Below the pieces are notes generated by a model that did not search any database, was not told the origin of the DNA, and was given only the letters and a program-made list of their open reading frames with translations. The translations under genes and the position numbers were made by a program. From Candidatus Gastranaerophilales bacterium (GTDB taxonomy: Bacteria; Cyanobacteriota; Vampirovibrionia; Gastranaerophilales; Gastranaerophilaceae): a DNA stretch of 64,000 bases. Each line of letters begins with the position of its first letter. Within the stretch, counting starts at the first letter, position 1. Below, piece by piece: positions 1,761 through 54,632 of the stretch. The stretch spans positions 189,694-253,693 of the forward strand of contig OZ007029.1 of NCBI GenBank assembly GCA_963931575.1, written 5' to 3'.

Positions 1761-1862
1761 AATAATCCCCTTATATCATCAAATTATACAGCAAACATTG
1801 TAATTTTATTTTAATATTTCAAAATTATAGATTTCTTTCTACTTTTAGAGTAAGATAAACCC

Positions 1863-4110: not shown

Positions 4111-4282
4111 AAATTTATTTTATTTCAGACAAAATTAATAAACAATCCTATCAGCATAAAAATCATAAAGCGTTTAAAGATAAAAAAATGTTCAAAAAGT
4201 GTTCAAAAAGCTCTAATGTGATTTTAATAGCAATTTATATATAAATTGTTATTTGTAAATTTAAAGTAGCCTAAAATTGATT

Positions 4283-4705: not shown

Positions 4706-4735
4706 CTTTTCGGCAATTTCATAGTATTTATTTTT

Positions 4736-6382: not shown

Positions 6383-6769
6383 TTAACATTCCGACATAAA
6401 ATTTGTGACAATTTTAAAAGCTAAAATGCAGTAATAATAAGATTTTTTAAAAATGCTATTTTTACAATATTCACCTCAAACACTTTATCTATCTGCTTTA
6501 TAAAAAAGACAAATATTTGTCCTGTTTTTTACGAAGAAATATGAAGTGGTCTTGACGAAACAAGTTTTTGTTATATTTTCGCCATTAAAATAATTATATC
6601 TGCTGTTAAACAAGAATAAATAAGCTCAAAATTATGCTCAGGGAAATTTCCCAATAAGTCTGAAATCTTTAAGCCGGTTAAATCAGGGGTATATTTTGGT
6701 TAATTTTATAATGGGTTAAAATACTGATTTTCTGTTTAAAATCGGGGAAAAATTTATGAAGTTATGTTT

Positions 6770-8111: not shown

Positions 8112-8113
8112 TT

Positions 8114-10093
8114 TTATGCTCCGTATAAATTGTTATATTCATCACTGCTTAAATACTTTTCAAGCCACTTCCGCTGTTCGGGATTAGTGCAACCATATTT
8201 CATTAACCATTCATATTTTTCATAATCTGCATTAAAAACAGGTACATTCATCTGTTGTTCTCTAAAGTTTAATTTGCGTTTTAGTGGTGTTTTAGTCTGT
8301 TCAAATTTTTCAATTTCAATAACTTCTTCCTGTTCAATCTCTATAGCTTCTGCTTTTTCTTTAGGGAAATACTTTAAGAACTCTTTTTTCACTCTCTTAA
8401 ATCTGCGTTGCTGTTTTTGTATTTGTTGCTTAAATTGTTCCATATCTTTTACTGTTCCTAAATGATTTGCCATTGGATGAACTTTTTCAACTTGTCTTGC
8501 GATACATAAAAATTCACCTTTTATTGAATACACAAGGACTTTTGAAAGGTCAAACAAACTGTATTTTATAAATACTTTTTCTCTTAAATCCAATAAATAA
8601 TCACTCCTATAATGCATTCCAAGAAATGTTATTCCATGTTTATTTATTGTTCTTACTTCAGTTTTCATCATAAGGTCGTTCAAAATACTTTTATCAATAT
8701 TCTCTTTTGAAATATCATTTAACATCTCTTGAATAGTTTTTGAACGGTTATTAGGACAAGGTTTTGAATTATGGTAATCGAGCCAGCAATCTATAAATTT
8801 TATTGTTTCTTGAATTGTTGGAATATAGTTTTTTGTTAACTTATTATGCATCTCTCTATGCAATTTTTCTCCTCGCTTCATCCAAGCAGGTTTATTTTCA
8901 ATACTTGTTCCTATATAACTTGTCATCATTTTTTCAAACTCTTCTTGAAATTCAAGAAAGAATCTTTCAATAACTTTTGCTCTTGCATTATATGGTTTTG
9001 CAAAAACTGATTTTATTCCAAGTTTTGTATAAATCCCATTAAACCCAGCTTCGTCAAAATCTATATTTTGAAAATATTTTGCTTTAAATGCTTTTCCGTT
9101 ATCTTGATAAACTACTTTTGGAATCAAGCCGAGATTTAAAATAGAATTTCTTAATGCACTTGCTATGCATTGAGTATTCTCACTCATCATAATTTCATAT
9201 CCGACTAATGCTGTTGATTTCCAATCTAAAAAGCCGACTAAAGTTGCTCTGGTCGGCTTTCCTGTAAATGGATTGATTATTTGAAAATTAAGAACATGTC
9301 CGTCAGCTATCAAAACATCTCCTACTTCAATTTTAGAAATATCTCGTTCTATATACGGTTCAATTTTATCGTGATATGCTTTTTCACCTTCTCTAAATAA
9401 AACCCACTTTGAATAATTGTTTTTCTTAAAATTCTCCGCAAATCTTCTGAATGTTAGATTACAAGGAATATTTTCATATCCTCGCTTTTCTAGAATATGT
9501 TTTGTTAAATTTATAGCTTTTCCGATACTAAATTTATTCGGGTATAACAAATATTTCAAAAATATCTGTTTCATCTCCTCATTCAAAATCGTATTATATT
9601 CACCTTGTTTATTAGTTTTGCGTTTTTGTAGAAGCCCGTCCGTTCCATAATTTTCAAACATCTTAACCCAACGATGGAGTGTTCCTATCGAAATTGAACC
9701 AACAAACTTATATATTTGGGGCAAATACATTCCACTGTTATATAAATCTAAAAATACTGAATCAGCCTCTTTTTTAGTTGGATATTTTTTACGAATATTA
9801 TATAAGGCAGTTACTATATCCACTCTTGCAAGTGCTGTTAATCTTGCATTTTCTGATACAAAATTCCCCTTGTTTTCAAACGAAACAATTGCTGTTGTTT
9901 TTAATTCTTCTTGATCTAATCTATCTTGTATCTCAGGTTCTAATGAAGAATAAAGAATTTCATACGATTTCCCGCCTCTTACTTCAACTTCTCTTGCAAT
10001 ATACTTACCTTGGTTAATTGCAAGTCTTATTGAACGTGTACTTTTTAATCCTTTTAATTCTGCGATTTTGTTAATATTTATATATTCGTCCAT
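8114..10093 (-). CDS. DDE transposase, MuA/TnsB/TniA-like
   Basis: N-terminal HTH (INKIAELKGLKSTRSIRLAINQGK); ADGHVLNF (D1); VYQDNGKAF (D2); AKVIERFF (E); Mu-type C-terminal barrel (INKHGITFLGMHY...KVFIKYSLFDLSKVLVY). Confidence 0.8.
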   Translation of the reverse strand: MDEYININKIAELKGLKSTRSIRLAINQGKYIAREVEVRGGKSYEILYSSLEPEIQDRLDQEELKTTAIVSFENKGNFVSENARLTALARVDIVTALYNIRKKYPTKKEADSVFLDLYNSGMYLPQIYKFVGSISIGTLHRWVKMFENYGTDGLLQKRKTNKQGEYNTILNEEMKQIFLKYLLYPNKFSIGKAINLTKHILEKRGYENIPCNLTFRRFAENFKKNNYSKWVLFREGEKAYHDKIEPYIERDISKIEVGDVLIADGHVLNFQIINPFTGKPTRATLVGFLDWKSTALVGYEIMMSENTQCIASALRNSILNLGLIPKVVYQDNGKAFKAKYFQNIDFDEAGFNGIYTKLGIKSVFAKPYNARAKVIERFFLEFQEEFEKMMTSYIGTSIENKPAWMKRGEKLHREMHNKLTKNYIPTIQETIKFIDCWLDYHNSKPCPNNRSKTIQEMLNDISKENIDKSILNDLMMKTEVRTINKHGITFLGMHYRSDYLLDLREKVFIKYSLFDLSKVLVYSIKGEFLCIARQVEKVHPMANHLGTVKDMEQFKQQIQKQQRRFKRVKKEFLKYFPKEKAEAIEIEQEEVIEIEKFEQTKTPLKRKLNFREQQMNVPVFNADYEKYEWLMKYGCTNPEQRKWLEKYLSSDEYNNLYGA

Positions 10094-10177
10094 ACATACA
10101 GATTAACTCTGAAGTCGGAAATGTGTTCCTTTTTTCCTTCTTTTGTATCATTAGGACATAATTTTATTCAATATACG

Positions 10178-10217
10178 AACCGGACTTTATTTACTTAAAA
10201 TGTCAAATATAATCGTT
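10178..10217 (+). repeat. Direct repeat copy 1 (aaccggactttatttacttaaaatgtcaaatataatcgtt)
   Basis: Identical to 12398-12435 except for a 2-bp TA indel. Lies 85 bp upstream of the transposase start. Confidence 0.9.
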
Positions 10218-10247
10218 GTATGTGTACAGATAAAAATACAAAAGATA

Positions 10248-10556
10248 TTAATTATTATTAGGTTTAGAATCAATATCAGTAGCTTCTATTTTGAAGATTA
10301 CCGGTCTTAATCCATCGTTGCAACTTACAATAGCAACTCCTTTTTCTTTAATCCAATCTCCATAATAAAAAACATCTTCAATTCCGTGAGAAAGTGCAAA
10401 TACATATTGATAAATAGCTTTCCACGCTTCATTACAAAATCCTTCGGGACATTCCCAATCTGCGTAAAATTCTTGTCCTTCTTTTAACATTGGACAAGCT
10501 GTTAAACCATCTACACCATATTGTTGTGAAAGTTCTTTATCAAAGTGCTTTTTCAA
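10248..10556 (-). CDS. small Cys-containing protein, TIGR04076-like
   Basis: 102 aa. CPMLKEGQEF...WECPEGFCNEAW...SCNDGLRPVIFKIE recalls the TIGR04076 family; this recognition is from memory. Confidence 0.45.
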   Translation of the reverse strand: MKKHFDKELSQQYGVDGLTACPMLKEGQEFYADWECPEGFCNEAWKAIYQYVFALSHGIEDVFYYGDWIKEKGVAIVSCNDGLRPVIFKIEATDIDSKPNNN

Positions 10557-10832
10557 AACAGTAATTTTGCATTTTTTAATATTACTATACTCCTTAATAG
10601 GATATTATATTAAAAATTTCTATTTTTTACACTTAATTTAGAAATGTTAACTTTATTTATTTGAGAATAAATATTTGATTAATTCTCCTTAAATATACAC
10701 AGTGAACTTTTCCAGTTTATAAAAATCACTTCTGACCCAAAATTAAATTTCAAATAATCATTTTATTCGAAGAAATAATCTAATTCAAAAGGTAGCATCT
10801 TACAAACTGTAAAGTAAAATGTGAAAACTAAA

Positions 10833-10862
10833 AATTCCACGGGCTATTAATTCCGTGGAATT
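10833..10862 (-). terminator. Rho-independent terminator after the flavoprotein gene
   Basis: aattccacgg...ccgtggaatt stem with a T-rich tail on the minus strand. Confidence 0.5.
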
Positions 10863-10922
10863 TTCAATATCTGAATACGCAAGGCACTTATATCTTTGCT
10901 TTTAGACTTAATGCATCATATC

Positions 10923-11558
10923 TTATTTTATAAAATTTGTGTAAATATAATTTTCAATATTTGGTAAATCGTGATTAGATTTAATATAAAATTCTTTCAT
11001 TTCTAAAAACCAAGCCATATTTGTACCTAATATTCTCATAGTCTGCAGACCTTCTTCATCTTTTTTAACATCTTCAGGCGTCCAACCATGAACCATATTC
11101 CAATATCTTGAAGATATAATAGGCATTTCTGACACTAAAAAATATTTATTTAATTGGTCTAAAGTTGCAGTTGTTCCTGCACGTCTTGCAGAAATTATTG
11201 CTGCACCGGGTTTAAGATAAAACCTCTTTTTATTGCTCAAAGAATCTGCAAAAAAGGCTCTATCTAAAAAAGGTACAATTATACCGCTGGCACTTGCATA
11301 GTGAACAGGAGAACCAAAAATAAATCCATCAGCATTTTCAGCTTTATCAAGGAATTCATTCACTTTATCGTTAATAACACATTTGCCTAATTTTGCACAA
11401 GCTCTGCAATCTCGGCAAGGAGAAATTGCATTTGTTCCAATATAAAATATTTCAGTTTCAATATTTTTTTGATTTAATACATTTGCGACTTCACATAAAG
11501 CAGTATAAGTACAGCCCTGTTTATGTGGTGAACCATTTAGTAAAAGAACTTTCATCAC
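10923..11558 (-). CDS. flavodoxin-like NAD(P)H-dependent FMN reductase / iron-sulfur flavoprotein
   Basis: MKVLLLNGSPHKQGCT N-terminus, CRDCRACAKLGKC cysteine cluster, FGSPVHYASASG. Confidence 0.7.
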   Translation of the reverse strand: MMKVLLLNGSPHKQGCTYTALCEVANVLNQKNIETEIFYIGTNAISPCRDCRACAKLGKCVINDKVNEFLDKAENADGFIFGSPVHYASASGIIVPFLDRAFFADSLSNKKRFYLKPGAAIISARRAGTTATLDQLNKYFLVSEMPIISSRYWNMVHGWTPEDVKKDEEGLQTMRILGTNMAWFLEMKEFYIKSNHDLPNIENYIYTNFIK

Positions 11559-11938
11559 TACTCTCCATAAGATAATGTATCATAAACTTTTGCAACAATT
11601 TTCCAATCACCGTTAATCTTATTCATAATTAATAAATCTGTGAATTTATACCCGTGCCAATTATCTTCAATAACCCTCACTACCGCAATGGTTTTTTCTA
11701 ACGTAATAACATCCACTCTTGCGACATAATCATCTGTGCAAGCCCCCATTTTATCTATAGTATCGTAGAAAAGTTGAATTGAACCTGATTGATATTCTTT
11801 TTCATTTAATTGACCATAGAAGCTTGCCTTTTCATAAAAATAAGGTTTTACAATTTCACTATTACCATTTTTAACAGCTTCAATAAATTTTCTTGCTAAA
11901 TTCTCAACTGTGTTGAATTCTTCTATTTGTTCTCTCAT
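11558..11938 (-). CDS. NTF2/SnoaL-like small protein
   Basis: 126 aa. Alpha+beta cone-like pattern (VRVIEDNWHGYKFTDLLIMNKINGDWKIV). Its stop overlaps the next gene's start. Confidence 0.4.
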   Translation of the reverse strand: MREQIEEFNTVENLARKFIEAVKNGNSEIVKPYFYEKASFYGQLNEKEYQSGSIQLFYDTIDKMGACTDDYVARVDVITLEKTIAVVRVIEDNWHGYKFTDLLIMNKINGDWKIVAKVYDTLSYGE

Positions 11939-12039
11939 ATAATCCTCCTTTACTTTTTACAAGAAGCATGATAAACTTTAGCGGTAATTTATTCAAGTAC
12001 GGATATTTAGGTAACCTACTTACTTTAAAGGAACCATTT

Positions 12040-12384
12040 ATGGAAAAAGAAGAAAAAGATTGCATAAATAGTGTTGAAAGTTTTGAAGAAACTGGATTTA
12101 ATTATACTCTATCTCTAATAAGCGGAAAATATAAACTAACAATTTTATATGCTCTATATAGACATAAAGTAATTCGCTTTAATCAATTACAAAAATATTT
12201 AAAAATGATTTCACATAAAACATTAAGTAATGTATTAAAAGAACTTGAAGCGGATGATTTAATCATAAGAAAAGAATATCCGCAAATTCCTCCTAAGGTT
12301 GAATATTCGTTATCGGAAAAAGGGAAATCACTTATTCCTATACTATATTCATTATGTGAATGGGGAGAGAAGCATAAAATTTAA
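12040..12384 (+). CDS. HxlR-family winged-helix transcriptional regulator
   Basis: LISGKYKLTILYALY...RFNQLQKYL..ISHKTLSNVLKELEADDLIIRKEY..IPPKVEYSLSEKG. ATG 12040 is preferred over the upstream extension in the track. Confidence 0.75.
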   Translation: MEKEEKDCINSVESFEETGFNYTLSLISGKYKLTILYALYRHKVIRFNQLQKYLKMISHKTLSNVLKELEADDLIIRKEYPQIPPKVEYSLSEKGKSLIPILYSLCEWGEKHKI

Positions 12385-12397
12385 AACTTTTTATAGT

Positions 12398-12435
12398 AAC
12401 CGGACTTTATTTACTTAAAATGTCAAATAATCGTT
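12398..12435 (+). repeat. Direct repeat copy 2
   Basis: Matches 10178-10217. Together the two copies bracket the 2.2-kb four-gene cassette. Confidence 0.9.
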
Positions 12436-12615
12436 TTAGCCGTACAAGTTAGATTGTGAGGGCGAAATAGACTATAACATTGATTTTAAAATAGAAAATT
12501 TAAGTCAATTCTTGGACAGTAATCGGACAATGATGACCAAGAAAAGACCCTTTTGTAACATGTAAAACGATTACTTCCGACCGCCAAAGTTCAAACACAA
12601 AGCCAACTTTGCCGA

Positions 12616-12725
12616 ATAATCTTTTTATGCGTTCAGATAAAATGTCCCGTTAAATTACATAAAATGTCCCGTTAAATTACAATAATCTTTTTATGCGTGC
12701 AGATAAAATGTCCCGTTAAATTACA
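12616..12725 (+). repeat. Tandem repeat block: 3 x 23 bp (ataaaatgtcccgttaaattaca) and 2 x 21 bp (aataatctttttatgcgtKcag)
   Basis: 23-mers lie at 12637-12659, 12659-12681 and 12703-12725. 21-mers lie at 12616-12636 and about 12682-12702. The last 23-mer ends in ACA, 45 bp from the tRNA 3' end. Confidence 0.9.
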
Positions 12726-12743
12726 ATTATATATCCAACAAAA

Positions 12744-12765
12744 AAGACCCGCTTCAGCGGGTCTT
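12744..12765 (-). terminator. Terminator of tRNA-Ser
   Basis: aagacccgc-ttca-gcgggtctt hairpin followed by a T-run on the minus strand. Confidence 0.7.
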
Positions 12766-12770
12766 AAATT

Positions 12771-12860
12771 CGGAGACGGAGAGATTCGAACTCTCGGTGC
12801 AGGTAGCCCCACACAACACCTTAGCAGGGTGCCGCCTTAAGCCAACTCGGCCACGTCTCC
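12771..12860 (-). tRNA. tRNA-Ser (anticodon GCU), class II with a long variable arm; no encoded CCA
   Basis: Reverse complement is GGAGACGTGGCCGAGTTGGCTTAAGGCGGCACCCTGCTAAGGTGTTGTGTGGGGCTACCTGCACCGAGAGTTCGAATCTCTCCGTCTCCG. It folds by hand: 7-bp acceptor stem, anticodon loop CTGCTAA, T-arm GAGAG-TTCGAAT-CTCTC. Confidence 0.9.
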
Positions 12861-12956
12861 TTCCTACATGATGTTACCTCCTCATACTATCACAAAAAAA
12901 CTTTTTTGCAAACTATTTCATTTTATAGTATGATATTTTTCAGAGGTTATTTAATT

Positions 12957-14272: not shown

Positions 14273-14692
14273 TTACCTGCCGCGGCCGACGTTTTGCGAA
14301 ATTATATCAGATACAAATGGAACATACGTGTAAACTCCGAGGGCGGAAGTTATCATCAGGTATGCGATAAACAGATACATTACCATTTGTATTAGGGAAT
14401 AATTCATAAACAGCGGGGCGTTAAACAGGTAGTATATTTGCTGTGTGAATACTTTTATTATAGGGATGACCGAAAGTACATCGTTTATAATTCCGAGAAG
14501 CACATTCAATATAAACAGCAGGATTGAGATGAATATTGATTGAAAAATGTGGTATTTTACAAAACTGCTGGACTGAGATTTTGTAAATGCGCCTAATATC
14601 AGCCAGATAAAACCTATAAAGCCCATGGTTAAATAACTGAGAGAAACAACGATGCGTTCAATCAGGTAAGGGGAACGTTCTCTAAAACTCAC
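14273..14692 (-). CDS. small polytopic membrane protein (Tic20/DUF4870-like)
   Basis: 139 aa with four hydrophobic segments. The family call is tentative. Confidence 0.35.
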   Translation of the reverse strand: MSFRERSPYLIERIVVSLSYLTMGFIGFIWLILGAFTKSQSSSFVKYHIFQSIFISILLFILNVLLGIINDVLSVIPIIKVFTQQIYYLFNAPLFMNYSLIQMVMYLFIAYLMITSALGVYTYVPFVSDIISQNVGRGR

Positions 14693-15747
14693 GCAGCTTC
14701 TCCCGAGTTTTTCTGATCAACATATTCATCGAGCACCTGAACATAGATAAGTTTATATTCATCATTTTCAGGCGCTATTGTCATTGCAGATTTGTATGCG
14801 CCAAGTGCTGTTTCAGTTTCACCTTTTAAGTAGTGCGCGTTGCCCAGAAGCATATAAACTTCCGCATCATTAGGTTTAATTGTAAGAACCTTTTTGTACA
14901 AAGCCATTGCCTCGTCAAGGTGATTGAAGTTTGTATATAGATTTGCCAGAAGAACATAGGCATTGGTTTCTTTTGGTTGCAATTCAATTGCTTTATTGTA
15001 CATTCCGACAGCGACGTCATATTCTTCAAATTCAGAAAGTGCGATTGCGTAACAGATGTAAGCTTTATAGTTGTCGCCTTCCATTGTAAGAGCTTTTTCA
15101 AACCATGAATAAGCACCTTCGCGGTCTTTCATTAGAGTTAAGGTGTTAGCAACACAGAGTGCGACAATTTTGTTGTCGGAATTAAGTGCGAATACTTTTT
15201 TATAAAGTTCCAGAGCGGTCTGGTAATCGTATAACTTAAAGCAAACATTGCCCATATCAATGAGGGCTGTAATATTTTCCGGATCCAGCGAAAGTGCTTT
15301 TTCATAATAAGCTTTTGATTCAACGAACTCTTCAAAATCCTGATAAAGCAGTGCGATTGCGTTATAGATTTCAGGGTTTGTGGAATTCAAATCAATTGCG
15401 CGGTTGTAGTAGAAAAGAGCTTTTTGGAAATTTTTCCATTCTGCAAACACGTTACCCATGTTGTAATAAGTCAAATAGTTTTTAGGATTAAGTTCGAGGG
15501 CTTTGTTGAAGTACTGGAGAGATTTTCTGAAATCTTTTTCATAAAACCACATTGTACCCATTCCGATAAGCGCTCTTTCATCGTCAGGGTGTACGGTTAA
15601 TAAACTTTCAAGAACGGACATAACTTTGTCGTAATTTTGCTGTGCAAGATAAAGTTCTGAAAGTTTATGATAACCAGCTGCATCCTGCGGGTTTTTAGCC
15701 ATTTCAAGGATTGCTTCTTCTATTTGCTTATTGATATCTTTTACCAT
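14689..15747 (-). CDS. TPR-repeat protein
   Basis: Repeated A..Y..AL.L.P motifs throughout. ATG 15747 (MVKDINKQ) is preferred over the upstream GTG. Confidence 0.7.
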   Translation of the reverse strand: MVKDINKQIEEAILEMAKNPQDAAGYHKLSELYLAQQNYDKVMSVLESLLTVHPDDERALIGMGTMWFYEKDFRKSLQYFNKALELNPKNYLTYYNMGNVFAEWKNFQKALFYYNRAIDLNSTNPEIYNAIALLYQDFEEFVESKAYYEKALSLDPENITALIDMGNVCFKLYDYQTALELYKKVFALNSDNKIVALCVANTLTLMKDREGAYSWFEKALTMEGDNYKAYICYAIALSEFEEYDVAVGMYNKAIELQPKETNAYVLLANLYTNFNHLDEAMALYKKVLTIKPNDAEVYMLLGNAHYLKGETETALGAYKSAMTIAPENDEYKLIYVQVLDEYVDQKNSGEAA

Positions 15748-15829
15748 TTTGTCACCCAAAAAATAATGTATTACTCTTCTCAAGAGTAATCTTAGCACAT
15801 TATCTGGAAACTTGCAAGCCGTGAAGTTA

Positions 15830-20794: not shown

Positions 20795-20823
20795 TTGACT
20801 AATTCTAAAACATGGTACATAAT
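20795..20823 (+). promoter_or_regulatory. Consensus-like sigma70 promoter of pilin paralogue 1
   Basis: TTGACT-17 bp-CATAAT. The block ...AACATGGTACATAATG is conserved in all five paralogue loci. Confidence 0.7.
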
Positions 20824-20827
20824 GAAG

Positions 20828-20933
20828 AAGGCAATAAGGCAATAAGAGAATAAGGCAATAAGTCGTAGTGGCCAAATGGAAGAAAAAAGAATAGTCCTAT
20901 TGCCATAATGCCCTATTAACTTATTGCCTTATT
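20828..20933 (+). repeat. Long AT-rich inverted-repeat leader built from GGCAATAAG / CTTATTGCC units (copy 1)
   Basis: Left arm is aaggcaataaggcaataagagaataaggcaataag. Right arm is ctattgccataatgccctattaacttattgccttatt. Confidence 0.85.
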
Positions 20934-21106
20934 CCAGTAGTTTGGGCTTTCCAGCCCAACGGAACAAAAAGAAAGGATCGGCGGTCGGCGCGAGCGAGCC
21001 GAGAGTGGAGTGCGTGACGCACGTAACTCGTTTTCGGCGAGTCGAGCAAGAAAAGCCGGTACCATAATTAGACAATGGCGGAACGCCAGAAAGGATAGAA
21101 GAACTT

Positions 21107-22390
21107 ATGAAAAACCGAAGTGTAACAAATTATGCAGGGGGGGGGGGGAGCCGCTCAACCGGTAAATCCTGCACCTTAGGCATCAATGTCATTCAGAACA
21201 GCGAACGAAGCGAGCGTGATTCAGGATCTGACAAGTGTAGCGAACTACCGGTGTCGTTGGACAGATCCCGAAATAAATTCGGAATGACACCGCCGGTCAA
21301 GGCGGCTTCCTGTTTGGGTTGGTCGTTAAAAGGTCATGTTCAACCCTTGTGGATGGCACTCAGTGCCTTTACCATGGCAGCCAGGCTGAGCCGCTCGACT
21401 GAGTCGGTCGCTGAGCGACTTCCACAATTGAATCCGAGCAAGAATTTAGCATTCACAATGGCAGAAATCTTATTATCCCTCACGATAATCGGAGTTGTGG
21501 CGGCGATAACGCTTCCAAGCCTTACCGGAAACATTAATGAGCGCACATGGAACACGCAGCGAAAAGCCCTCTATGCCAGAATGAGTCAGGCGATTGCGCT
21601 TATGCCAGCATTAAATGGCTATGGTACACTGACCGAAGGCGACAGTTCGACTTCAGCAGAGGATACCGCCGCTGAAACCTTTGTCACAGCAGGTTTATCA
21701 AAAGTTCTTAAAATAAATAACATCTGTGACAGCGAGCACCTTGAAGATTGCGGAATTGTTTCACAGATTACAAATCTGCAGGCCAGTAAGGTCAATGTTC
21801 CAACTACTCTTGTCGGATTGAATCCTATGTTTAACAGTACTTTTATTGGCGGGCCGACTGGCAGCGGAAGCTTTACTTATTCCCAACTTGACACTAAGGC
21901 TGCTGCGTTTGAAACCGCTAATGGTGAAAGTATAATTGTCTACTATAATCCGGCCTGCCAATCTGATTTGGCGGAAACTGAATGGAATTACAGGCAGGCT
22001 AAAATGTGTGCGAACTTTATTTATGACCTGAATGGAAGTAAAGGACCTAATACTTTTGGTAAAGATATAGGGGTTATAACCGTATTGTATCCTTCGGATT
22101 CTTCTGTCGTTGCTCCGATACCGGCGTCAGTCAGGAGCGCCGGTTCATCATCGCAGAGAGATGCCGGTAAATTATGCCTGTCACAGGATTCAGAAGGTCG
22201 TGTTCCTAATAGGGATGAACTTGCTGCTGTATTTTATAATAGAGTTATGTTTGGGCTTCCGGGCAGCGATTACTTTTGGACCAGTTCTGTCATAGATTCT
22301 TCTAATGGCTGGGGACAAAGCTTTTATACCGGTCGTGCTGCAATATTGCCGCGAACAGGCGGATATAATGTCTGGTGCGTTAAACGTTAA
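21107..22390 (+). CDS. pilin-like adhesin paralogue 1: long hairpin-module leader, prepilin N-terminus and DUF1566-like C-terminus; in frame with its SD-ATG
   Basis: AFTMAEILLSLTIIGVVAAITLPSLTGNINERTWNTQRKALYAR; DLNGSKGPNT; C-terminal RVPNRDELAAVF...YFWTSS...VWCVKR. Confidence 0.75.
   Translation: MKNRSVTNYAGGGGSRSTGKSCTLGINVIQNSERSERDSGSDKCSELPVSLDRSRNKFGMTPPVKAASCLGWSLKGHVQPLWMALSAFTMAARLSRSTESVAERLPQLNPSKNLAFTMAEILLSLTIIGVVAAITLPSLTGNINERTWNTQRKALYARMSQAIALMPALNGYGTLTEGDSSTSAEDTAAETFVTAGLSKVLKINNICDSEHLEDCGIVSQITNLQASKVNVPTTLVGLNPMFNSTFIGGPTGSGSFTYSQLDTKAAAFETANGESIIVYYNPACQSDLAETEWNYRQAKMCANFIYDLNGSKGPNTFGKDIGVITVLYPSDSSVVAPIPASVRSAGSSSQRDAGKLCLSQDSEGRVPNRDELAAVFYNRVMFGLPGSDYFWTSSVIDSSNGWGQSFYTGRAAILPRTGGYNVWCVKR
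21137..21148 (+). repeat. Poly-G tract, G12, 30 nt after SD-ATG 21107 (in frame)
   Basis: Counted directly; encodes GGGG in the ORF track protein MKNRSVTNYAGGGGSRS. Confidence 0.9.
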
Positions 22391-23170: not shown

Positions 23171-23755
23171 TCAAGCGTTAAGCTCTTTAAACGCTGCATC
23201 AAGCGCTTTCGGGCAAATTCCGATAATATTTTCAAGACTTCCGCTGTAGGATTTTACGTACCCCTGAGGCAGCTCCTGAATACCGTAAGCCCCGGCTTTA
23301 TCCAGCGGTTTAAAATTATCTACGTAATAGTCAATCATTTCATCGGTAAGATAATTAAAAACTACGTGTGACGTGGTCGATTTTATTACACTTTTCCCGC
23401 TTTTGGTATTAATTAGGGCAATACTTGTTACTACCTGATGTTCGCGGCCGGAAAGCTGTTTTAACATCCTTTTGGCATCCTGTGAGTCCTTTGGCTTCTC
23501 AAGAATTTTTCCGTCCAGTACGACAACGGTATCGGCACCTATAATGGTACAATCTCCTTCTACAAGCGGAACAACAGCCTTCGCCTTATTATATGCCAGG
23601 TTCTCCACGTAACCATAAGAAAAAGCCGTCGTCGTATGTACTTCCTCATACGGGGACGGCATAATTTCAAATATATATTTGTCTTTTAGTATTTCTGCCC
23701 TTCTCGGTGAAGATGAGGCAAGAATATTTTTTCCCATTATTTGCTCCTTTTTCAC
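23171..23755 (-). CDS. maf: Maf-family nucleoside triphosphate pyrophosphatase
   Basis: LASSSPRRAEIL, GADTVVVLDGKILEKP, KAGAYGIQ. Confidence 0.85.
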   Translation of the reverse strand: MKKEQIMGKNILASSSPRRAEILKDKYIFEIMPSPYEEVHTTTAFSYGYVENLAYNKAKAVVPLVEGDCTIIGADTVVVLDGKILEKPKDSQDAKRMLKQLSGREHQVVTSIALINTKSGKSVIKSTTSHVVFNYLTDEMIDYYVDNFKPLDKAGAYGIQELPQGYVKSYSGSLENIIGICPKALDAAFKELNA

Positions 23756-24553: not shown

Positions 24554-24582
24554 TTGACTAAATAGAAAACATGGTACATAAT
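24554..24582 (+). promoter_or_regulatory. Promoter of pilin paralogue 2
   Basis: TTGACT-17 bp-CATAAT. Confidence 0.7.
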
Positions 24583-24673
24583 GAAAGAGTGCCGCTGAGC
24601 GGCATCCATAATAAGACAATGGCAAAATGCCAAGAAAGGATGGAAAAATGGAAAAACGTAAGAGTGTAACAAT

Positions 24674-25909
24674 TTGCACGGGGGGGGGGGGGGGCCGGCT
24701 GAGCCGACCGCTGAGCGGTACCCACGACTGAACCCGAGCGACTGGACAAAGAAATCCCCATATTGTCATCCTGAACTGCGCGAGCGAGCAGAGGCACAAA
24801 GCGAAAACCACGCTTTTCGCGGTGCCGTTTTGCGCGAGTCGAGCAAGACAGATTCAGGATCTGACCAGTGTTGCGAACTACCGGTGTCGCTGGCCAGATC
24901 CCGAAATAAATTCGGGATGACATTACAGAAAATAACCATGTCTTGTGGTTTTACAATGGCAGAAATCCTGTTATCCCTCACGATAATCGGCGTTGTGGCG
25001 GCGATAACGCTACCAAGTTTAACCGGAAATATTAACGAGCGGACGTGGAACACTCAGCGAAAAGCGCTTTATGCACGACTTTCACAGGCAATATCTCTAA
25101 TGCCTGCTCTGAACGGTTACGGAACATTAAAAGAGGAAAGTTCTGCCGGTGCGAGTGATGCAGTGGATACTGTTGCAGAAACTTTTTTAACGGCAGGACT
25201 TTCAAAAGTTCTTAAAATAAATAACATCTGCGATAATGAACATCTACCTGATTGCGGTCTGTCGTCCAGAATTACAAATCTTGCGGCAAGTCAGATTGAT
25301 TTACCGTTGAAGTTGTCTGATTTGAATCCGCTTAATATATATGTATCTCAATCGTGGAGTGCAACGACATCGCATGGTGCCGGCTCTAGATATTATTCTA
25401 TGATGGATGCAAAAGCCGCTGCATTTGAAACCGCTAATGGTGAAAGTGTTGTCGCTTATTACAATTCGTCTTGCGCGCCTTCAATGTCCGAGAGTGCAGG
25501 TATTTATGCCGCAGCTAAGATTTGTGTAAGTTTTCTTTATGACCTGAACGGGAACAAAGGCCCGAATACTGTTGGTAAAGATCTCGGTTTGATCACGGTA
25601 TATTATCCTTCCGATAGTCTGGTTGTTGCTCCGGTGCCTTATTCACGCGATGCAGGAGTGTTAGTTTCAGATTCCGGTGTTAATAGCATTTGTAAATCTC
25701 TGGATGAAGATTACCGGCTGCCTACTATCGAAGAATTGGGGGCGCTTTCCTTTAACTCTGAACTTATAGGAAATTTAGATGCTGAGCGTTATGCCTCATC
25801 CACTTTCCTATCTTCTTCCAAAAAATGGTATTTACATGCCGACTCAGGAATATTGAATGTAGATGACAGATTTTCTACGACTTCGGACATCAGATGTGTT
25901 AAAAGATAA
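24674..25909 (+). CDS. pilin-like adhesin paralogue 2; frame is open from the poly-G tract; alternative conventional start at ATG 24917
   Basis: SCGFTMAEILLSLTIIGVVAAITLPSL...; DLNGNKGPNT; C-terminal YRLPTIEELGALS...DIRCVKR. Confidence 0.7.
   Translation: MHGGGGGPAEPTAERYPRLNPSDWTKKSPYCHPELRERAEAQSENHAFRGAVLRESSKTDSGSDQCCELPVSLARSRNKFGMTLQKITMSCGFTMAEILLSLTIIGVVAAITLPSLTGNINERTWNTQRKALYARLSQAISLMPALNGYGTLKEESSAGASDAVDTVAETFLTAGLSKVLKINNICDNEHLPDCGLSSRITNLAASQIDLPLKLSDLNPLNIYVSQSWSATTSHGAGSRYYSMMDAKAAAFETANGESVVAYYNSSCAPSMSESAGIYAAAKICVSFLYDLNGNKGPNTVGKDLGLITVYYPSDSLVVAPVPYSRDAGVLVSDSGVNSICKSLDEDYRLPTIEELGALSFNSELIGNLDAERYASSTFLSSSKKWYLHADSGILNVDDRFSTTSDIRCVKR
24680..24694 (+). repeat. Poly-G tract, G15, after SD-ATG 24648 (out of frame; +1 or -2 G needed)
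   Basis: Counted directly. The ATG 24648 frame stops at about 24723 (MEKRKSVTICTGGGGGRLSRPLSGTHD*). Confidence 0.9.
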
Positions 25910-44768: not shown

Positions 44769-44899
44769 ACAAAACCTCTCTTTTAACTTCAATTCTATCA
44801 TATTTTTTGAATGAAAGCAATCATATATTGACATGACTTGAAACATGGTACATAACCGCCGGTCAAGGCGGCTTCCTAATTAGACCCTTGCTATCGGTC

Positions 44900-44928
44900 T
44901 TGACTAAACTCAAAACATGGTACATAAT
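44900..44928 (+). promoter_or_regulatory. Promoter of pilin paralogue 3
   Basis: TTGACT-17 bp-CATAAT. A partial duplicate of the aacatggtacataa block lies at 44836-44850. Confidence 0.7.
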
Positions 44929-44933
44929 AAGAG

Positions 44934-45096: not shown

Positions 45097-45145
45097 GCAA
45101 AAAAAAGAAAGGATGGAAAAATGAAAAAGCGAATTGTAAGTATGT

Positions 45146-46312
45146 ATGCAGGGGGGGGGGGGGAGCGCTGAGCCGGCCGCTGAGCGGCATCCACAAAGCG
45201 ATCCGTGCAAGAAATTAAATGTCATCCTGAACCGCGAGCGAAGCGAGCGTGATTCAGGATCTGTCCCACGTTACGAACAGGTATCCAACATTGGCCAGAC
45301 CCTGAAACGAGTTCAGGGTGACAAATTTTTGTCATTGCGTGTCGGTTTTACCATGGCAGAAATCCTATTATCCCTCACTATAATAGGCGTTGTTGCGGCG
45401 ATAACGCTTCCGTCACTTACCGGCAACATCAATGAGCGGACATGGAACACACAACGCAAAGCCCTTTATGCGCGTTTTAGTCAGGCAATTGCTTTAATGC
45501 CTGCGCTTAATGGTTATGGTACATTAAGAGAAAATACTGACAGTGCGGGTTCAACTTCCATTGAGGACACTGCGGCAGAAACTTTTATTACTGCCGGACT
45601 TTCAAAAGTCCTTAAGATAAATAATATTTGTGACAATGAGCATTTAGAAGATTGCGGCATTGCGTCAAAATTTACTGATATGAAAGGCAATACTGTATCA
45701 ATTCCGCTCAAGATGTCAGAATTAAATTCAAAAATGACGTCTGTTTCTTATTGGTCGAGTAGTCTTAATACGAATATTTATTATAGTACTATTGATACAA
45801 AGGCTGCGGCTTTTGAAACGCAAAACGGAGAAAGTATCCTATTATTTTATCAGCCGGTTTGTGTTTCAAATATGGGTGAAACGGGTAGATATAATGTTCA
45901 GCCTAAAGTATGTGCAAATATGATATATGACCTTAACGGAACAAAAGGGCCGAATACTTTTGGAAAAGATATAGGAATCTTGACGGTATTATATCCTTCT
46001 GATAGCGTTGTTGTTGCACCGGTGCCATTTAATACCAAATTTGACAGCGTTCCGGCTGAGGAGGCAAGTAATGTTTGTACAACCAGAACGGGTGAAGATT
46101 ATAGAATTCCATCAAAGGATGAAGTAATTTCCCTATTTGTTAATAAGGATATTATAGGCTTTGAAGAGGGTGACAGCCATTTATTTTCGTCTTCTAAGCT
46201 TGTAACATCTTCCGGTTATATTACCAACTGGGTTTTATATTTAGGAAGCGGTGAATTTAGAATTCCGGTCGCCGGCGATCCGTGGGGTGTTTTATGCGTC
46301 AAACGAAATTAA
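45146..46312 (+). CDS. pilin-like adhesin paralogue 3 (frame open from the poly-G tract)
   Basis: RVGFTMAEILLSLTIIGVVAAITLPSL; DLNGTKGPNT; C-terminal YRIPSKDEVISLF...GVLCVKRN. Confidence 0.7.
   Translation: MQGGGGSAEPAAERHPQSDPCKKLNVILNRERSERDSGSVPRYEQVSNIGQTLKRVQGDKFLSLRVGFTMAEILLSLTIIGVVAAITLPSLTGNINERTWNTQRKALYARFSQAIALMPALNGYGTLRENTDSAGSTSIEDTAAETFITAGLSKVLKINNICDNEHLEDCGIASKFTDMKGNTVSIPLKMSELNSKMTSVSYWSSSLNTNIYYSTIDTKAAAFETQNGESILLFYQPVCVSNMGETGRYNVQPKVCANMIYDLNGTKGPNTFGKDIGILTVLYPSDSVVVAPVPFNTKFDSVPAEEASNVCTTRTGEDYRIPSKDEVISLFVNKDIIGFEEGDSHLFSSSKLVTSSGYITNWVLYLGSGEFRIPVAGDPWGVLCVKRN
45151..45163 (+). repeat. Poly-G tract, G13, after SD-ATG 45121 (out of frame; -1 or +2 G needed)
   Basis: Counted directly. 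The ATG 45121 frame gives MKKRIVSMYAGGGGGALSRPLSGIHKAIRARN*. Confidence 0.9.
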
Positions 46313-50175: not shown

Positions 50176-50204
50176 TTGACTAAACTCGTAAAATCGTACA
50201 TAAT
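50176..50204 (+). promoter_or_regulatory. Promoter of pilin paralogue 4
   Basis: TTGACT-17 bp-CATAAT; the -35 lies 68 bp from the divergent secA start. Confidence 0.7.
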
Positions 50205-50208
50205 GAAG

Positions 50209-50282: not shown

Positions 50283-50366
50283 GCTAAAGTAGGTTGGGCT
50301 TGCCAGCCCAACACAATAAAAAGAAAGGATAGAAGAAATGAAAAGACGAGGTGTAAAGATTATGAC

Positions 50367-50380
50367 GGGGGGGGGGGGGG
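50367..50380 (+). repeat. Poly-G tract, G14, after SD-ATG 50338 (out of frame; -1 or +2 G needed)
   Basis: Counted directly. The ATG 50338 frame gives MKRRGVKIMTGGGGEFLTRKIRY*. Confidence 0.9.
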
Positions 50381-50518
50381 AGTTCCTTACCCGCAAAATT
50401 AGGTATTGAGGATGTTAGTTCCCCATGTCATGCTGAACTTGTTTCAGCATCTGTTCCACGTTACGAGCGGGTATCCTACGTTGGCCAGACCCTGAATCAA
50501 GTTCAGGGTGACAAAAAT

Positions 50519-51502
50519 ATGCAATGTGTCCGTAAGTGTCTACCGTCATTGCGAGCCGCATTCACAATGGCAGAGATTCTGTTATCCCTGACAATTATCG
50601 GTGTGGTGGCGGCGATAACGTTACCGAGCCTTACGGGAAACATAAATGAGCGTACGTGGAACACGCAAAGAAAAGCGCTTTATGCGCGGTTTTCACAGGC
50701 AATTGCCCTAATGCCGGCACTCAATGGTTATGGTACTTTAAGAGAAAATACTGACAGCGCAGGTTCAACCTCAATAGAAGATAATGCCGCCGAAACCTTT
50801 ATAACCGGCGGGCTGTCAAAAGTTCTTAAAATTAACAATATATGCGACAGTGACCACCTCGCGGATTGCGGCATTGCTTCAAAGTTTACTGACTTGAACG
50901 GTAATCAGAAGATTATTCCTGCCGATATGCTAACGCTGAATTCCGTAATGATAAATACTACAATTTCAACAGCATCAGGTTTTTCATCTTCATATTCAAC
51001 ATTAAATACAAAGGCTGCCGCGTTTGAAACTGCAAACGGCGAGAGTATTCTCACTTTCTATAATCCTAATTGTGTATCTAACGGGAATGAAAATGAATGG
51101 CATTTTGTACAACCTCTTATTTGTGCAAACTTTGTCTATGACCTGAACGGGAACAAAGGCCCGAATACTGTTGGAAAAGATATTGGATTTATTTCTGTTT
51201 TGAATTCCAGTGACAGTATTGTTGTTGCACCCGTACCTTATAATCATAAAGTCGGAGAATCCTTGACTCCTCAGGAAGCAATTTCTGCCTGCGCTGCTAA
51301 TAATCGTGAACATCGGCTGCCAAATAAAGATGAAGCAGCCTCCTTGTTTGTTAACCAATTCTTTTTAGGATTGTCTTATGATAACTTTGTGACAAGTTCT
51401 AAAAAAGATGCGGATAGCTACTGGTATCAAGGATTTCAAACAGGTATGAGAAATTTTGATCATTCTTATGCAAGCGGTAATGTATTATGTATTTACAGAT
51501 AA
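50519..51502 (+). CDS. pilin-like adhesin paralogue 4; the same frame is stop-free back to the poly-G tract at 50381
   Basis: MQCVRKCLPSLRAAFTMAEILLSLTIIGVVAAITLPSL; DLNGNKGPNT; C-terminal HRLPNKDEAASLF...VLCIYR. Confidence 0.75.
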   Translation: MQCVRKCLPSLRAAFTMAEILLSLTIIGVVAAITLPSLTGNINERTWNTQRKALYARFSQAIALMPALNGYGTLRENTDSAGSTSIEDNAAETFITGGLSKVLKINNICDSDHLADCGIASKFTDLNGNQKIIPADMLTLNSVMINTTISTASGFSSSYSTLNTKAAAFETANGESILTFYNPNCVSNGNENEWHFVQPLICANFVYDLNGNKGPNTVGKDIGFISVLNSSDSIVVAPVPYNHKVGESLTPQEAISACAANNREHRLPNKDEAASLFVNQFFLGLSYDNFVTSSKKDADSYWYQGFQTGMRNFDHSYASGNVLCIYR

Positions 51503-53162: not shown

Positions 53163-54332
53163 TCATCGCTTTACGCACATTACCTGATGCTCATAATTTC
53201 GTGGATCGGGTGAAACCTGCGCTGCTGCGAAATACATTCTCCAAACTCTGATTTCTCCGTTCCATTCGGTCATTGCACTTGTCCAATATGCACCGGAGAG
53301 GCTTTCGCCTAATAAAGTCCGGTTGTAACTCAACGAAATAGATTCTTCCAGATTAGATAACCTGCTTTCGGAATCCCGTTCCCGACATATTTCCGCTGCG
53401 TCATAGTAGTTTACGCTTGTTGGGCTGTTATATACAAGCACCGGAGCTACAACAACCGGATCAGAAGGATAAAGTATTGTTATAAAGCCCATGTCTTTAC
53501 CAACGGTATTTGGTCCTTTTGTGCCGTTTAAATCATAAACAAGATTTGCGCACATTTTCGGCTGTGTATAATATGAGGATTGTTCATCCATTTTTGCGGA
53601 GCAGTAGGGGTTATAGTAAGCAACGATACTTTCGCCGTTGGCTGTTTCAAAAGCGGCTGCAACGGTGTCAAGCTGGGAAAGATATGAATACGAATTCCCG
53701 TTACTATCAACAATATCAGAGGCGTAAAATGCAGGGTTAAACTCGCGGATTGTTTTAGGGAAAGAGCTTATGGTGCTGCCGGCAAAGGTTGTGAATTTCG
53801 TTGGAATGCCGCAATCTTCAAGGTGATCAGAATCGCAGATGTTGTTAATTTTTAAAACTTTACTTAAACCGGCAGTTACAAAGGTTTCGGCAGCAGTGTC
53901 GACGGCGGAGGTTGAGGAATCCCCTTCCGTAACTGTTCCGTAACCGTTTAATGATGGCATCAGGGCAATTGCCTGCGACATGCGGGCATAGAGGGCTTTT
54001 CTCTGCGTGTTCCACGTTCTCTCGTTGATGTTTCCGGTAAGACTTGGTAAGGTAATCGCCGCAACTACACCGATTATCGTGAGGGAGAGTAAAATCTCAG
54101 CCATAGTGAACGCTGCGTTTTTAATCGGATCCAATTGTAGAACCGACTCAGTCGGTGTCATCCCGAATTTATTTCGGGATCTGTCCAACAATACCGACAG
54201 CACGCCATGCTGGATAGATCCTGAATCTGTCTTGGATTTGCTCCACGCTCGCAGAGTTTCGCCTAAGGAGCTTTGCTCCAACCGGCTCAATCTGCTCGCT
54301 ATACGGCTTTCACTTTGTTCAGCCGTACGCAA
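53163..54332 (-). CDS. pilin-like adhesin paralogue 5; the same frame is stop-free up to the poly-G tract at 54416
   Basis: NAAFTMAEILLSLTIIGVVAAITLPSL; DLNGTKGPNT; C-terminal SRLSNLEESISLS...AYWTSA...VMCVKR. Confidence 0.7.
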   Translation of the reverse strand: MRTAEQSESRIASRLSRLEQSSLGETLRAWSKSKTDSGSIQHGVLSVLLDRSRNKFGMTPTESVLQLDPIKNAAFTMAEILLSLTIIGVVAAITLPSLTGNINERTWNTQRKALYARMSQAIALMPSLNGYGTVTEGDSSTSAVDTAAETFVTAGLSKVLKINNICDSDHLEDCGIPTKFTTFAGSTISSFPKTIREFNPAFYASDIVDSNGNSYSYLSQLDTVAAAFETANGESIVAYYNPYCSAKMDEQSSYYTQPKMCANLVYDLNGTKGPNTVGKDMGFITILYPSDPVVVAPVLVYNSPTSVNYYDAAEICRERDSESRLSNLEESISLSYNRTLLGESLSGAYWTSAMTEWNGEIRVWRMYFAAAQVSPDPRNYEHQVMCVKR

Positions 54333-54416
54333 ATCCGCAAGTTCAGGATGACAGTTAAATTTTACGTAGTCCGTGAGCTCGTAGGCCCATTGTGGCTGTC
54401 GACTCAGTCGACTTTG

Positions 54417-54428
54417 CCCCCCCCCCCC
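54417..54428 (-). repeat. Poly-G tract, G12 (C12 on the plus strand), after SD-ATG 54477 (out of frame; -1 or +2 G needed)
   Basis: Counted directly. There are 61 nt from the ATG to the first base after the tract. Confidence 0.9.
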
Positions 54429-54498
54429 TCGGTGGAATGCCCGTACTACAAGGGTTTTCAGCTTCTAAATTTTTCATCGTTTCTATCCTTTCTTTATC

Positions 54499-54603: not shown

Positions 54604-54632
54604 ATTATGCACGATTTTTTGCTTTACGTCAA
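54604..54632 (-). promoter_or_regulatory. Promoter of pilin paralogue 5
   Basis: Minus strand TTGACG-17 bp-CATAAT. Confidence 0.65.

Follow-up and report, generated by a model that had tools for sequence, protein, structure and literature searches.

The stretch analysed here is a 64-kb window of a metagenome-assembled genome (MAG) of Candidatus Gastranaerophilales (Melainabacteria/Vampirovibrionia); "the window" refers to this whole stretch of DNA. It carries five copies, named c1 to c5, of a gene family encoding pilin-like proteins, in each of which a long run of guanines between the start codon and the mature coding region appears to act as an on/off switch. The five loci share one layout, namely a promoter, a 5' untranslated region (UTR), a Shine-Dalgarno (SD) site, an ATG, a short series of codons, a tract of G12 to G15, a spacer, and an open frame that begins at the motif FTMAE (Table 1). 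The tracts and the start codons lie exactly where a first-pass annotation of this DNA had placed them, and the promoter that it had claimed for all loci is present as a TTGACT-17-CATAAT block common to the five copies. These tracts are the only runs of ten or more G in the window, where shuffled sequence would give 0.01 such runs and the observed count was reached in none of 100 shuffles. The copies are dispersed among housekeeping genes (encoding IF-2, RF-1, PheS, TruB, SecA, YchF, Maf, and an ArsB/CitMHS transporter), and no sixth family member was found within the 64 kb.

The tract starts 29-49 nt past the ATG in all five copies, and the pilin frame is open in each of them from upstream of the tract through to the stop codon. 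The register between the ATG and this frame differs among copies. The distance from the ATG to the first base past the tract is 42, 47, 43, 43, and 61 nt in c1 to c5, respectively, just as the annotation had counted, and c1 alone is in frame (ON; 21107-22390, 427 aa). The other four are out of frame (OFF), with c2 needing the gain of one G or the loss of two, and c3, c4, and c5 needing the loss of one or the gain of two. The same annotation had described a stop-free run of 74-122 codons from the last G into the FTMAEILLSL domain; the open frame holds, but the lengths do not, as the spacers from the tract to Phe(+1) measure 101, 85, 61, 60, and 102 codons.

Orthologous loci from closely related strains in other samples, retrieved via three single-copy neighbour genes (encoding a 247-aa protein, DUF561, and YchF), differ in tract length while their flanks are identical. 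The c1 orthologue in L090 has G13 and is OFF, versus G12 and ON in the window. For c3, which is G13 and OFF in the window, the tract is G13 and OFF in L099 and L101 and G12 and ON in L100 and L102. The c4 tract is G14 and OFF in the window, L099, and L100, and G13 and ON in L103. At c2, six samples have G14 and a seventh has G12, and these tracts are OFF throughout, as is the G15 of the window. The tracts of c5 orthologues range from G11 to G13, with the G11 of L086 being ON and the G12 of the window OFF, and c4 in L080 has G18 and is ON. Tract lengths thus vary across strains instead of being invariant, and since different lengths occur at loci with identical flanks (both ON and OFF alleles at c1, c3, and c4, and three lengths at c2), the slipped-strand translational phase variation proposed in the first-pass annotation is well supported. 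The copies also appear to switch independently, as had been suggested, because the ON copy differs between samples: it is c1 in the window, c3 in ERZ16268258 and ERZ21549450, and c4 in ERZ21549430. The recurrence of G14 in six independent assemblies speaks for reproducible assembled lengths and against random miscalling of the homopolymers. Use of the Maf-like neighbour (a GTG-start open reading frame (ORF) at 23171-23755) as a look-up key retrieved no loci, probably since its called start differs.

The same pattern is found across the family, for which statistics were collected over 87 unique tract-bearing genes from at least five of six related MAG species. Tract lengths of 8-18 occur, 13 being the most common, and the distance of 30 nt between ATG and tract seen in c1 recurs in 37 of the 87 members. 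Fifteen genes are ON and 68 are OFF, and 56 of these 68 carry the ON length plus one G. Spacers with a length divisible by three are found in 79 of the 87. In the first 60 mature codons, 16,608 synonymous differences were counted against 1,296 non-synonymous ones, nearly all at third positions, which reveals strong purifying selection on the mature part; the OFF copies are therefore not decaying and are not pseudogenes. Three of four hallmarks of a contingency locus were found, namely a repeat inside the frame, length polymorphism with both allele types, and OFF ORFs that are intact and under selection.

Several assemblies show irregularities exactly at the tract position, where contigs start (L040, L078) or N-gaps occur (L043, L018:441). 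In a koala MAG (MOYE01; L025, L052, L057), some tracts consist of two G runs around an N, with about 18-25 G in total. The contig breaks and N-gaps may reflect length heterogeneity or read failure at these positions.

Table 1. Features of the five pilin-like gene copies in the 64-kb window.
Feature	Coordinates	Strand	Remarks
c1 sigma-70-type promoter TTGACT-17-CATAAT	20795..20823	+	10/12 match
c1 structured 5' UTR	20824..21106	+	Order: long hairpin, GGGCTTTCCAGCCC hairpin, upstream SD copy, insert, working SD
c1 start and 10 pre-tract codons (MKNRSVTNYA)	21107..21136	+	
c1 G12 tract, ON	21137..21148	+	Codes Gly4
c1 spacer, 303 nt (101 codons)	21149..21451	+	Palindromic modules; stop-free in pilin frame; stops by frame 0/7/6
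c1 mature coding region, from Phe+1 (FTMAEILLSLTIIGVVAAITLP) to stop	21452..22390	+	Middle domain, then predicted C-terminal Lcl_C/C-type-lectin-like domain
c2 promoter	24554..24582	+	
c2 ATG, pre-tract codons, and G15 tract (24680-24694), OFF	24648..24694	+	Needs +1/-2 G
c2 spacer, 255 nt	24695..24949	+	Stop-free in pilin frame; strongly structured composite palindrome 24764-24922
c2 mature coding region and stop	24950..25909	+	
c3 promoter	44900..44928	+	Second promoter-like copy 44828-44855, module D between at 44856
c3 ATG, pre-tract codons, and G13 tract (45151-45163), OFF	45121..45163	+	Needs -1 G
c3 spacer, 183 nt	45164..45346	+	Stop-free in pilin frame
c3 mature coding region and stop	45347..46312	+	
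c4 promoter	50176..50204	+	
c4 ATG, pre-tract codons, and G14 tract (50367-50380), OFF	50338..50380	+	Needs -1 G
c4 spacer, 180 nt	50381..50560	+	Stop-free in pilin frame
c4 mature coding region and stop	50561..51502	+	
c5 promoter TTGACG-17-CATAAT	54604..54632	-	
c5 ATG (54477), 16 pre-tract codons, and G12 tract (54417-54428), OFF	54417..54477	-	Needs -1 G
c5 spacer, 306 nt	54111..54416	-	Stop-free in pilin frame
c5 mature coding region and stop	53163..54110	-	

The most conspicuous feature of these genes beside the tract is the region that separates it from FTMAE. The class III signal-peptide leader is described as short and hydrophilic, with a length of 6-26 aa (PMC4471445). This range is exceeded by the copies in the window, where the leader of c1 counted from the upstream ATG measures 115 aa and those of the other four would measure about 75-122 aa when ON; leaders as short as the class demands are found in tract-less and short-spacer relatives, at 4-22 aa. 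Tract-less members have canonical leaders of 4-10 aa directly past the SD (MTKKLG|F, MKRA|F, MKKHSA|F, MKKTKSAA|F), and tract-less long leaders are open from their own ATG. Among relatives in the koala MAG and in a MAG deposited as "Fusobacterium", spacers are merely 10-72 nt, and a short tract-bearing leader such as MKNKIMYMLTGGGGSSLTG|FTMAE comprises about 22 aa with the tract coding Gly4-5. In the species of the window, spacers of 147-759 nt were found in all 13 tract-bearing copies, and the orthologous c5 spacers of other strains range from 57 to 429 nt at one locus. The hydrophilic leader of about 100 codons with an internal poly-G tract, as reported in the first-pass annotation, is consequently a real feature of this genome but not one conserved family-wide, being instead a lineage-specific, hypervariable palindromic insertion by which the leader has been lengthened up to ten-fold.

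A total of 52 unique spacers of at least 90 nt were examined for reading-frame maintenance. The pilin frame is stop-free in 47 of the 52 and the other two frames in none, where a base shuffle predicts 3.06; summed over all spacers, there are 16 stops in the pilin frame versus 233 and 212 in the others, and the length is a multiple of three in 46. Between near-identical spacers, 76 non-synonymous and 9 synonymous differences were counted, distributed 31:32:22 over the three codon positions. A conserved protein domain was ruled out as the identity of the spacer by this missing codon-position bias and by AlphaFold2 (AF2) confidence below 50. The spacers are kept in frame and in structure, and their amino-acid sequence is unconstrained.

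The spacers are built as mosaics of palindromic modules (TGTCATCCTGAAC ... GATTCAGGATCTG ... CAGATCCCGAAATAAATTCGGGATGACA; CCGCCGGTCAAGGCGG; GCCGCTGAGCGGC; TGTCATTGCGAG ...), and their translations look like junk (CHPELVS...DRSRNKFGMT; CHCEERSDVAIQ...GLPRSRWSLAMT), including duplicated "AFTMAA" junction remnants. The c1 spacer, whose translation includes SRSTGKSCTLGINVIQNSER, contains one such AFTMAA remnant as well as a terminator-like element, module D, at 21290-21315. For the hairpin that precedes GACA, at least five versions were seen, each fully complementary (among them ATCCCGAA/TTCGGGAT, ATGCTGAA/TTCAGCAT, ACCCTGAA/TTCAGGGT, and ATTCCGAA/TTCGGAAT), so that its stems covary. The RNA fold of the c2 spacer is far better than that of shuffles (z = -4.96), and that of the c1 spacer is not (z = -1.25). 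Within the window the palindromic modules are confined to the five loci, and all 144 matches to four module motifs in 709 kb of Gastranaerophilus sequence lie at most 1.1 kb upstream of an FTMAE motif. Genome-wide elements of the miniature inverted-repeat transposable element (MITE) or repetitive extragenic palindromic type were rejected as the identity of the spacer, since the modules occur only upstream of this family. Module D (CCGCCGGTCAAGGCGG plus a T-rich tail) has a terminator-like score at 21290-21315, 44856-44880, and 54759-54779 (minus strand), that is, inside the translated spacer of c1 and just upstream of the promoters of c3 and c5. In the untranslated copies at c3 and c5, the frame that the c1 spacer keeps open is closed by a stop codon immediately past the hairpin. 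Another module is shared between the untranslated 5' UTR of c1 and the translated spacer of c2. The presence of the same modules at translated and untranslated sites, open only where translated, points to DNA or RNA elements that are kept open only on the path of the ribosome.

Comparison of strains revealed that one and the same locus may carry differing pre-tract leader peptides and spacers (L089-L096 at the c1 position; L079-L087 at the c4 and c5 positions). The c1 position in L089, L091, L092, and L095, for instance, has a c2-like 5' cassette with a 477-nt spacer. These locus-specific differences point to exchange of 5' cassettes among paralogues by recombination. Whole family members are also present or absent at one chromosomal position between strains, with c4 absent between the DUF561 gene and secA in L082 and L088, and c1 absent in L093.

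Upstream of the ATG, an SD block, AAGAAAGGAT, is common to all five loci. The SD that had been annotated in front of each ATG is indeed present in every copy, with the qualification that the invariant AAAGAAAGGAT of c1 is found 130 nt upstream (20968-20978). In this copy, GAAAGGAT (21089-21096) is the working SD, located past an insertion of about 110 nt that separates it from the invariant copy; this insert is a GC-rich hairpin and is the module homologous to the one in the c2 spacer. The c1 5' UTR also contains a long imperfect hairpin (20826-20935) made of tandem 8-nt units, GGCAATAA(G), and their complement, and its RNA fold (z = -5.45) was equalled in none of 200 shuffles. Hairpins of the same unit occur in the 5' UTRs of c3 (44933-45100), c4 (50207-50285), and c5 (54500-54600, minus strand), and in c2 another set of hairpins takes its place. 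The GGCAATAA-unit hairpin could stabilise the mRNA, mark a processing site, or act as an array for protein binding. A scan of the whole window for known RNA families at gathering thresholds returned a tRNA-Ser alone. When the 5' regions of c1 and c2 were scanned by E-value, only matches at chance level appeared (group-II D1D4, E 0.46; miRNA precursors), and a riboswitch or ribozyme reading of these regions was dropped on that account.

Two peculiarities were observed at c3. Its promoter block is duplicated in tandem (TTGAC...CATGGTACATAA; 44828-44855 and 44900-44927) with module D in between, and a second ATG, at 45146-45148, lies five bases upstream of the tract, in the pilin frame at G13 and with no SD before it. 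As the two upstream ATGs of c3 are in different frames, two of the three tract-length classes might allow some translation, similar to graded "volume control" switches.

Downstream of the spacer, all five copies have the junction A/G|FTMAEILLSLTIIGVVAAITLPSL, with Phe1, Glu5, Gly14, Pro22, and a hydrophobic stretch. For a class III signal peptide, the described pattern is Gly(-1)|Phe(+1), Glu5, and about 21 hydrophobic residues (PMC4471445), to which the motif conforms. Weak N-terminal matches were obtained to GspG, GspH, ComGE, PilA, and geopilin. In the AF2 model of c1, the mature part has a predicted local distance difference test score mostly above 90, most of residues 1-117 score below 50, and the globular part is confidently modelled as helices followed by a beta-sheet. 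The C-terminal domain is, by its model, an Lcl_C/C-type-lectin fold: Foldseek matched the last ~90 residues to the C-terminal domain of Lcl of Legionella (8q4e; E 5.8e-5, probability 1.0), to the C-terminal domain of Bd2740 of Bdellovibrio (8oks), and to many C-type lectins. A PDB profile match of c1 to 8q4e (E 0.0015) was also obtained; Pfam PF07603 scored 22.3 bits on c1 versus a cut-off of 34.9 and is precomputed on many homologues. The family may have an adhesin role, a label given because of this Lcl-like C-type-lectin fold. The first ~100 mature residues are near-identical among paralogues and the lectin-like end varies most. A diversity-generating retroelement acting on the lectin domain was considered, and no reverse transcriptase was found among the ORFs scanned.

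The family is large. The c1 gene matches contig CALUQY010000011.1, from a Candidatus Gastranaerophilales MAG, at 100% identity, and its ON protein was seen again as P0001, in a cluster with 15 member sequences. The scan that gave this match detected at least 462 relatives, of which the best 80 are spread over six related MAGs, with 13 of these loci in the MAG of the window; its genome therefore holds at least 13 family copies. A protein search (E <= 1e-5) returned at least 2,425 clusters, with a functional name on none, and a scan of JGI (Joint Genome Institute) metagenomes with a c1-specific variable-gap pattern gave zero matches. Many family members with 59-64% identity occur in JAMPIJ01, the one of the six MAGs that was deposited as "Fusobacterium sp. 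NALB_7963_5" (L007, L018, L020, L021, L043, L044, L051, L056, L064), which is probably a mislabelled Gastranaerophilales genome. No published description of the family, its tracts, or its leaders was found in the literature searched, an absence that is no proof of its being unpublished.

Taken together, we consider it probable that each of the five genes is a contingency locus in which a slipped-strand poly-G switch within a prepilin-type leader controls a lectin-ended, pilin-like product. A strong, constitutive-looking promoter and a structured 5' UTR would lead to the SD and ATG, followed by about 10-16 Lys/Arg-rich codons and the G12-G15 tract within a class III leader. Slipped-strand mispairing during replication would add or remove G's and thereby shift the downstream frame into or out of phase with the ATG, each paralogue presumably flipping ON or OFF on its own within a population. 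In the OFF state, ribosomes would halt 2-24 codons past the tract, and in the ON state they would traverse the spacer of family-specific palindromic modules. Selection on the spacer would act only to keep it stop-free and a multiple of three, and the result would be an abnormally long, disordered cytoplasmic leader. We infer that a prepilin peptidase removes this leader by cleaving at Ala/Gly(-1)|Phe(+1). Processing would take place on the cytoplasmic side, and a disordered extension of such length may be tolerated there. The mature product would be pilin-like and end in a variable C-type-lectin domain of the Lcl type; it is presumably an adhesin displayed on or by a type IV filament.

Several observations weigh against this interpretation. 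At c2, all three observed tract lengths are OFF, assembled homopolymer lengths may be off by one, and the strong excess of tracts one G longer than the ON length is not what a simple random walk predicts. To our knowledge, cleavage of a leader of 60-270 aa has never been demonstrated. Leaders of this size are far beyond the class III range of 6-26 aa (PMC4471445), and of 71 unique spacers, 51 have Ala and 20 have Gly at the -1 position, where Gly is described as critical in the systems studied. The Pfam N_methyl model scores 16.6-17.8 bits versus a cut-off of 21.2, TIGR02532 scores 15.9-16.1 bits versus 16.3, and Foldseek of the globular middle domain against the PDB gave no pilin and no significant match (best E-value 1.7). 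As the motif fits, yet the model scores lie below the cut-offs and no solved pilin matches, "pilin-like" is justified and "type IV pilin" is not proven. Neither a prepilin peptidase nor an assembly ATPase was found in the Pfam-scanned part of the window. T2SSE and T2SSF genes adjoin the position of the c4 orthologue in one related strain (L083), and pilB, pilC, pilD, and pilT have been reported in Ca. Gastranaerophilus termiticola (PMC5877343).

An extended form of this explanation, in which frameshifting is combined with translation-coupled attenuation and cassette shuffling and the palindromic modules form a functional second layer of the switch, is conceivable but rather doubtful. In such a system, the modules would be translated only in the ON frame, and their covarying hairpins and the terminator-like module D could fold upon an early stop of the ribosome, so that OFF mRNA is terminated or destabilised and internal starts are hidden. 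At the DNA level, the modules and the G run could drive the exchange of 5' cassettes between paralogues, and prepilin leaders of up to ~270 aa, 5-10 times the length of any described, could nevertheless be processed. It seems unlikely that the tract instead works as a rheostat, with transcriptional slippage or ribosomal frameshifting yielding some in-frame product from every copy, and with tract length setting a level and not a heritable ON/OFF state. Long homopolymers are known sites of RNA polymerase slippage, a one-base deletion in the mRNA would rescue the 56 of 68 OFF copies that have exactly one G too many, and the ATG in the pilin frame just ahead of the c3 tract means that "OFF" may leak there. 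Slippage is, however, best documented on A/T runs, and polymorphism exists in the DNA itself, with true ON alleles at c1, c3, and c4 and 15 family members in frame. A rheostat of this kind would in any case be compatible with the contingency-locus explanation and is not its exclusive alternative.

The hairpins bring in another candidate, attenuation as in the Pil1 system (PMC3894217), in which the SD, ATG, and poly-G tract would form a separate upstream ORF, the pilin would be translated from its own start before FTMAE, and the tract would set how far ribosomes reach into the hairpin-rich spacer and hence whether hairpins that terminate or sequester can form. The hairpin-rich spacers and UTRs (z = -4.96 and -5.45) with their covarying stems fit this model, as does module D, which is terminator-like in the c1 spacer and is found as well ahead of the promoters of c3 and c5, in the place expected of a terminator; candidate internal starts exist as an ATG in c2 (MSCG|FTMAE) and a TTG in c1 (MNPSKNLA|F). 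An upstream ORF has no need of an open frame up to FTMAE, yet 47 of 52 spacers are open and 46 of 52 are multiples of three. In addition, the internal starts lack an SD while the upstream SD is invariant, relatives with spacers of 12-27 nt leave no space for a second start, and module D is present in only some spacers, which together make attenuation very improbable. Even less credence can be given to the view that no switching takes place and that errors of assembly or sequencing produced the G runs, or that the OFF copies are pseudogenes of a family in decay. Long homopolymers are miscalled in Illumina assemblies, contig ends and N-gaps fall at tracts in several MAGs (L040, L078, L043, L018), and most copies are OFF. 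However, the tract occupies a homologous position in 87 genes of at least five species and many independent assemblies, and the G14 length was repeated in six independent samples. The OFF ORFs are intact over 310 or more codons and under strong purifying selection, and OFF copies are nearly always one step away from ON, with tracts that are uninterrupted and uneroded.

Apart from the pilin-like genes, the window includes a region of different composition at its left end. Within window positions 1-12900, the first ~12 kb have a GC content of 29-34% versus ~40% elsewhere and contain genes for HamA (948-1760), a pair of DNA methyltransferases (1863-3496), and an endonuclease that resembles MutH/MvaI (3493-4110), as well as two genes, at 4736-6382 and 8114-10093, whose products have a Mu-transposase C-terminal domain. 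The low-GC region ends near a tRNA-Ser(GCT) gene (12771-12860), with 45-nt direct repeats at 12615-12725, and looks like a Mu/Tn7-like mobile defence island beside a tRNA gene. The 369-aa ORF at 14689-15798 encodes a tetratricopeptide repeat (TPR) protein.

The Gastranaerophilales, non-photosynthetic relatives of cyanobacteria, are common in the human and animal gut but uncultured, and how they interact with hosts, phages, and other microbes is little known. If the proposed switch is real, dozens of independently switchable genes for lectin-tipped, pilin-like proteins in a genome of ~2 Mb would imply that a sizeable part of it serves to vary the cell surface stochastically. Such variation is a hallmark of host-adapted pathogens (Neisseria, Helicobacter, Campylobacter) and would here be found in a sister lineage of the photosynthetic Cyanobacteria. 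There are also practical consequences, as MAG assemblies break at the tracts and the shared 5' cassettes, and the genes are truncated or given wrong starts by gene callers. The apparently translated repeat leaders of 60-270 aa challenge the accepted class III range of 6-26 aa and could serve as a natural test of the tolerance of prepilin peptidase and of signal recognition particle (SRP) targeting.

Frameshift switches of this general design are known from other bacteria. In Neisseria, pilC carries a poly-G tract in the region coding for the signal peptide and the opa genes carry CTCTT repeats in the leader-coding region, and outer membrane protein (OMP) genes of H. pylori carry CT repeats. 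As in these systems, a hypermutable repeat lies here between the start codon and a mature surface or adhesion protein and would set its ON or OFF state by frameshift, and the many paralogues with independent switching resemble opa and the H. pylori genes. However, the leader is a Sec signal peptide there and of class III (prepilin) type here, and the present family is far larger (at least 13 copies in the MAG and at least 2,425 protein clusters). It resides in an uncultured gut Melainabacterium and has a long translated repeat spacer between tract and cleavage site. The poly-G loci of Campylobacter jejuni have about 8-13 G in coding regions of surface-structure genes and are polymorphic in length between strains (PMC6321876). 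In this they match the coding-region, strain-polymorphic G tracts described here, whereas the genes of the Campylobacter phasome are mostly unrelated, single-copy glycosylation or modification genes and those of the window belong to one paralogous family with a shared promoter-UTR-leader cassette. The Pil1 pilus of Streptococcus gallolyticus has its repeat in a short, separate leader ORF followed by stem-loops and is controlled by a transcription terminator (PMC3894217). Both systems have a repeat in the leader upstream of pilus-type genes, then stem-loops, and in both translation into the structured region matters. Whereas a switch of the Pil1 type has a leader ORF that stands apart and a structural gene that binds ribosomes at a site of its own, the Gastranaerophilales genes have a leader continuous with the structural gene (47 of 52 spacers in continuous frame, no SD at the internal starts), so that the frameshift occurs within a single polypeptide.

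For the protein, the closest parallels are the modular type IV pilins PilB and PilC of Streptococcus sanguinis, which, as here, join a pilin-type N-terminus to an additional C-terminal binding module. The module of the present family is predicted to share the C-type-lectin-like fold of the tip domains of Legionella Lcl and Bdellovibrio Bd2740 (8q4e, 8oks), neither of which is a pilin. The present proteins differ from the modular pilins in a middle domain without a match to a solved pilin. We know of no phase-variable tract or giant leader in modular pilins, Lcl, or Bd2740. Concerning the spacers, Rickettsia palindromic elements (RPEs) are in-frame MITE insertions that are translated (PMC10969869); they too are palindromic repeats of ~100-150 nt, in frame within coding sequence. 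Nevertheless, RPEs are dispersed in unrelated genes and have a conserved peptide, whereas the modules described here occur in one family only, without the genome-wide dispersal into unrelated genes that marks in-frame MITEs, encode an unconserved peptide, and belong to a segment that the protein probably loses by cleavage. Since a simple sequence repeat in the leader of a multigene surface family is an established kind of switch, the switch itself is not new, and the novelty that the first-pass annotation attached to the combination of a ~100-codon leader with a poly-G tract inside it applies instead to the lineage and to the expansion of the leader. What is new here is the lineage, the scale of the family, and a giant, hypervariable leader of family-specific hairpin repeats that is maintained only in frame.

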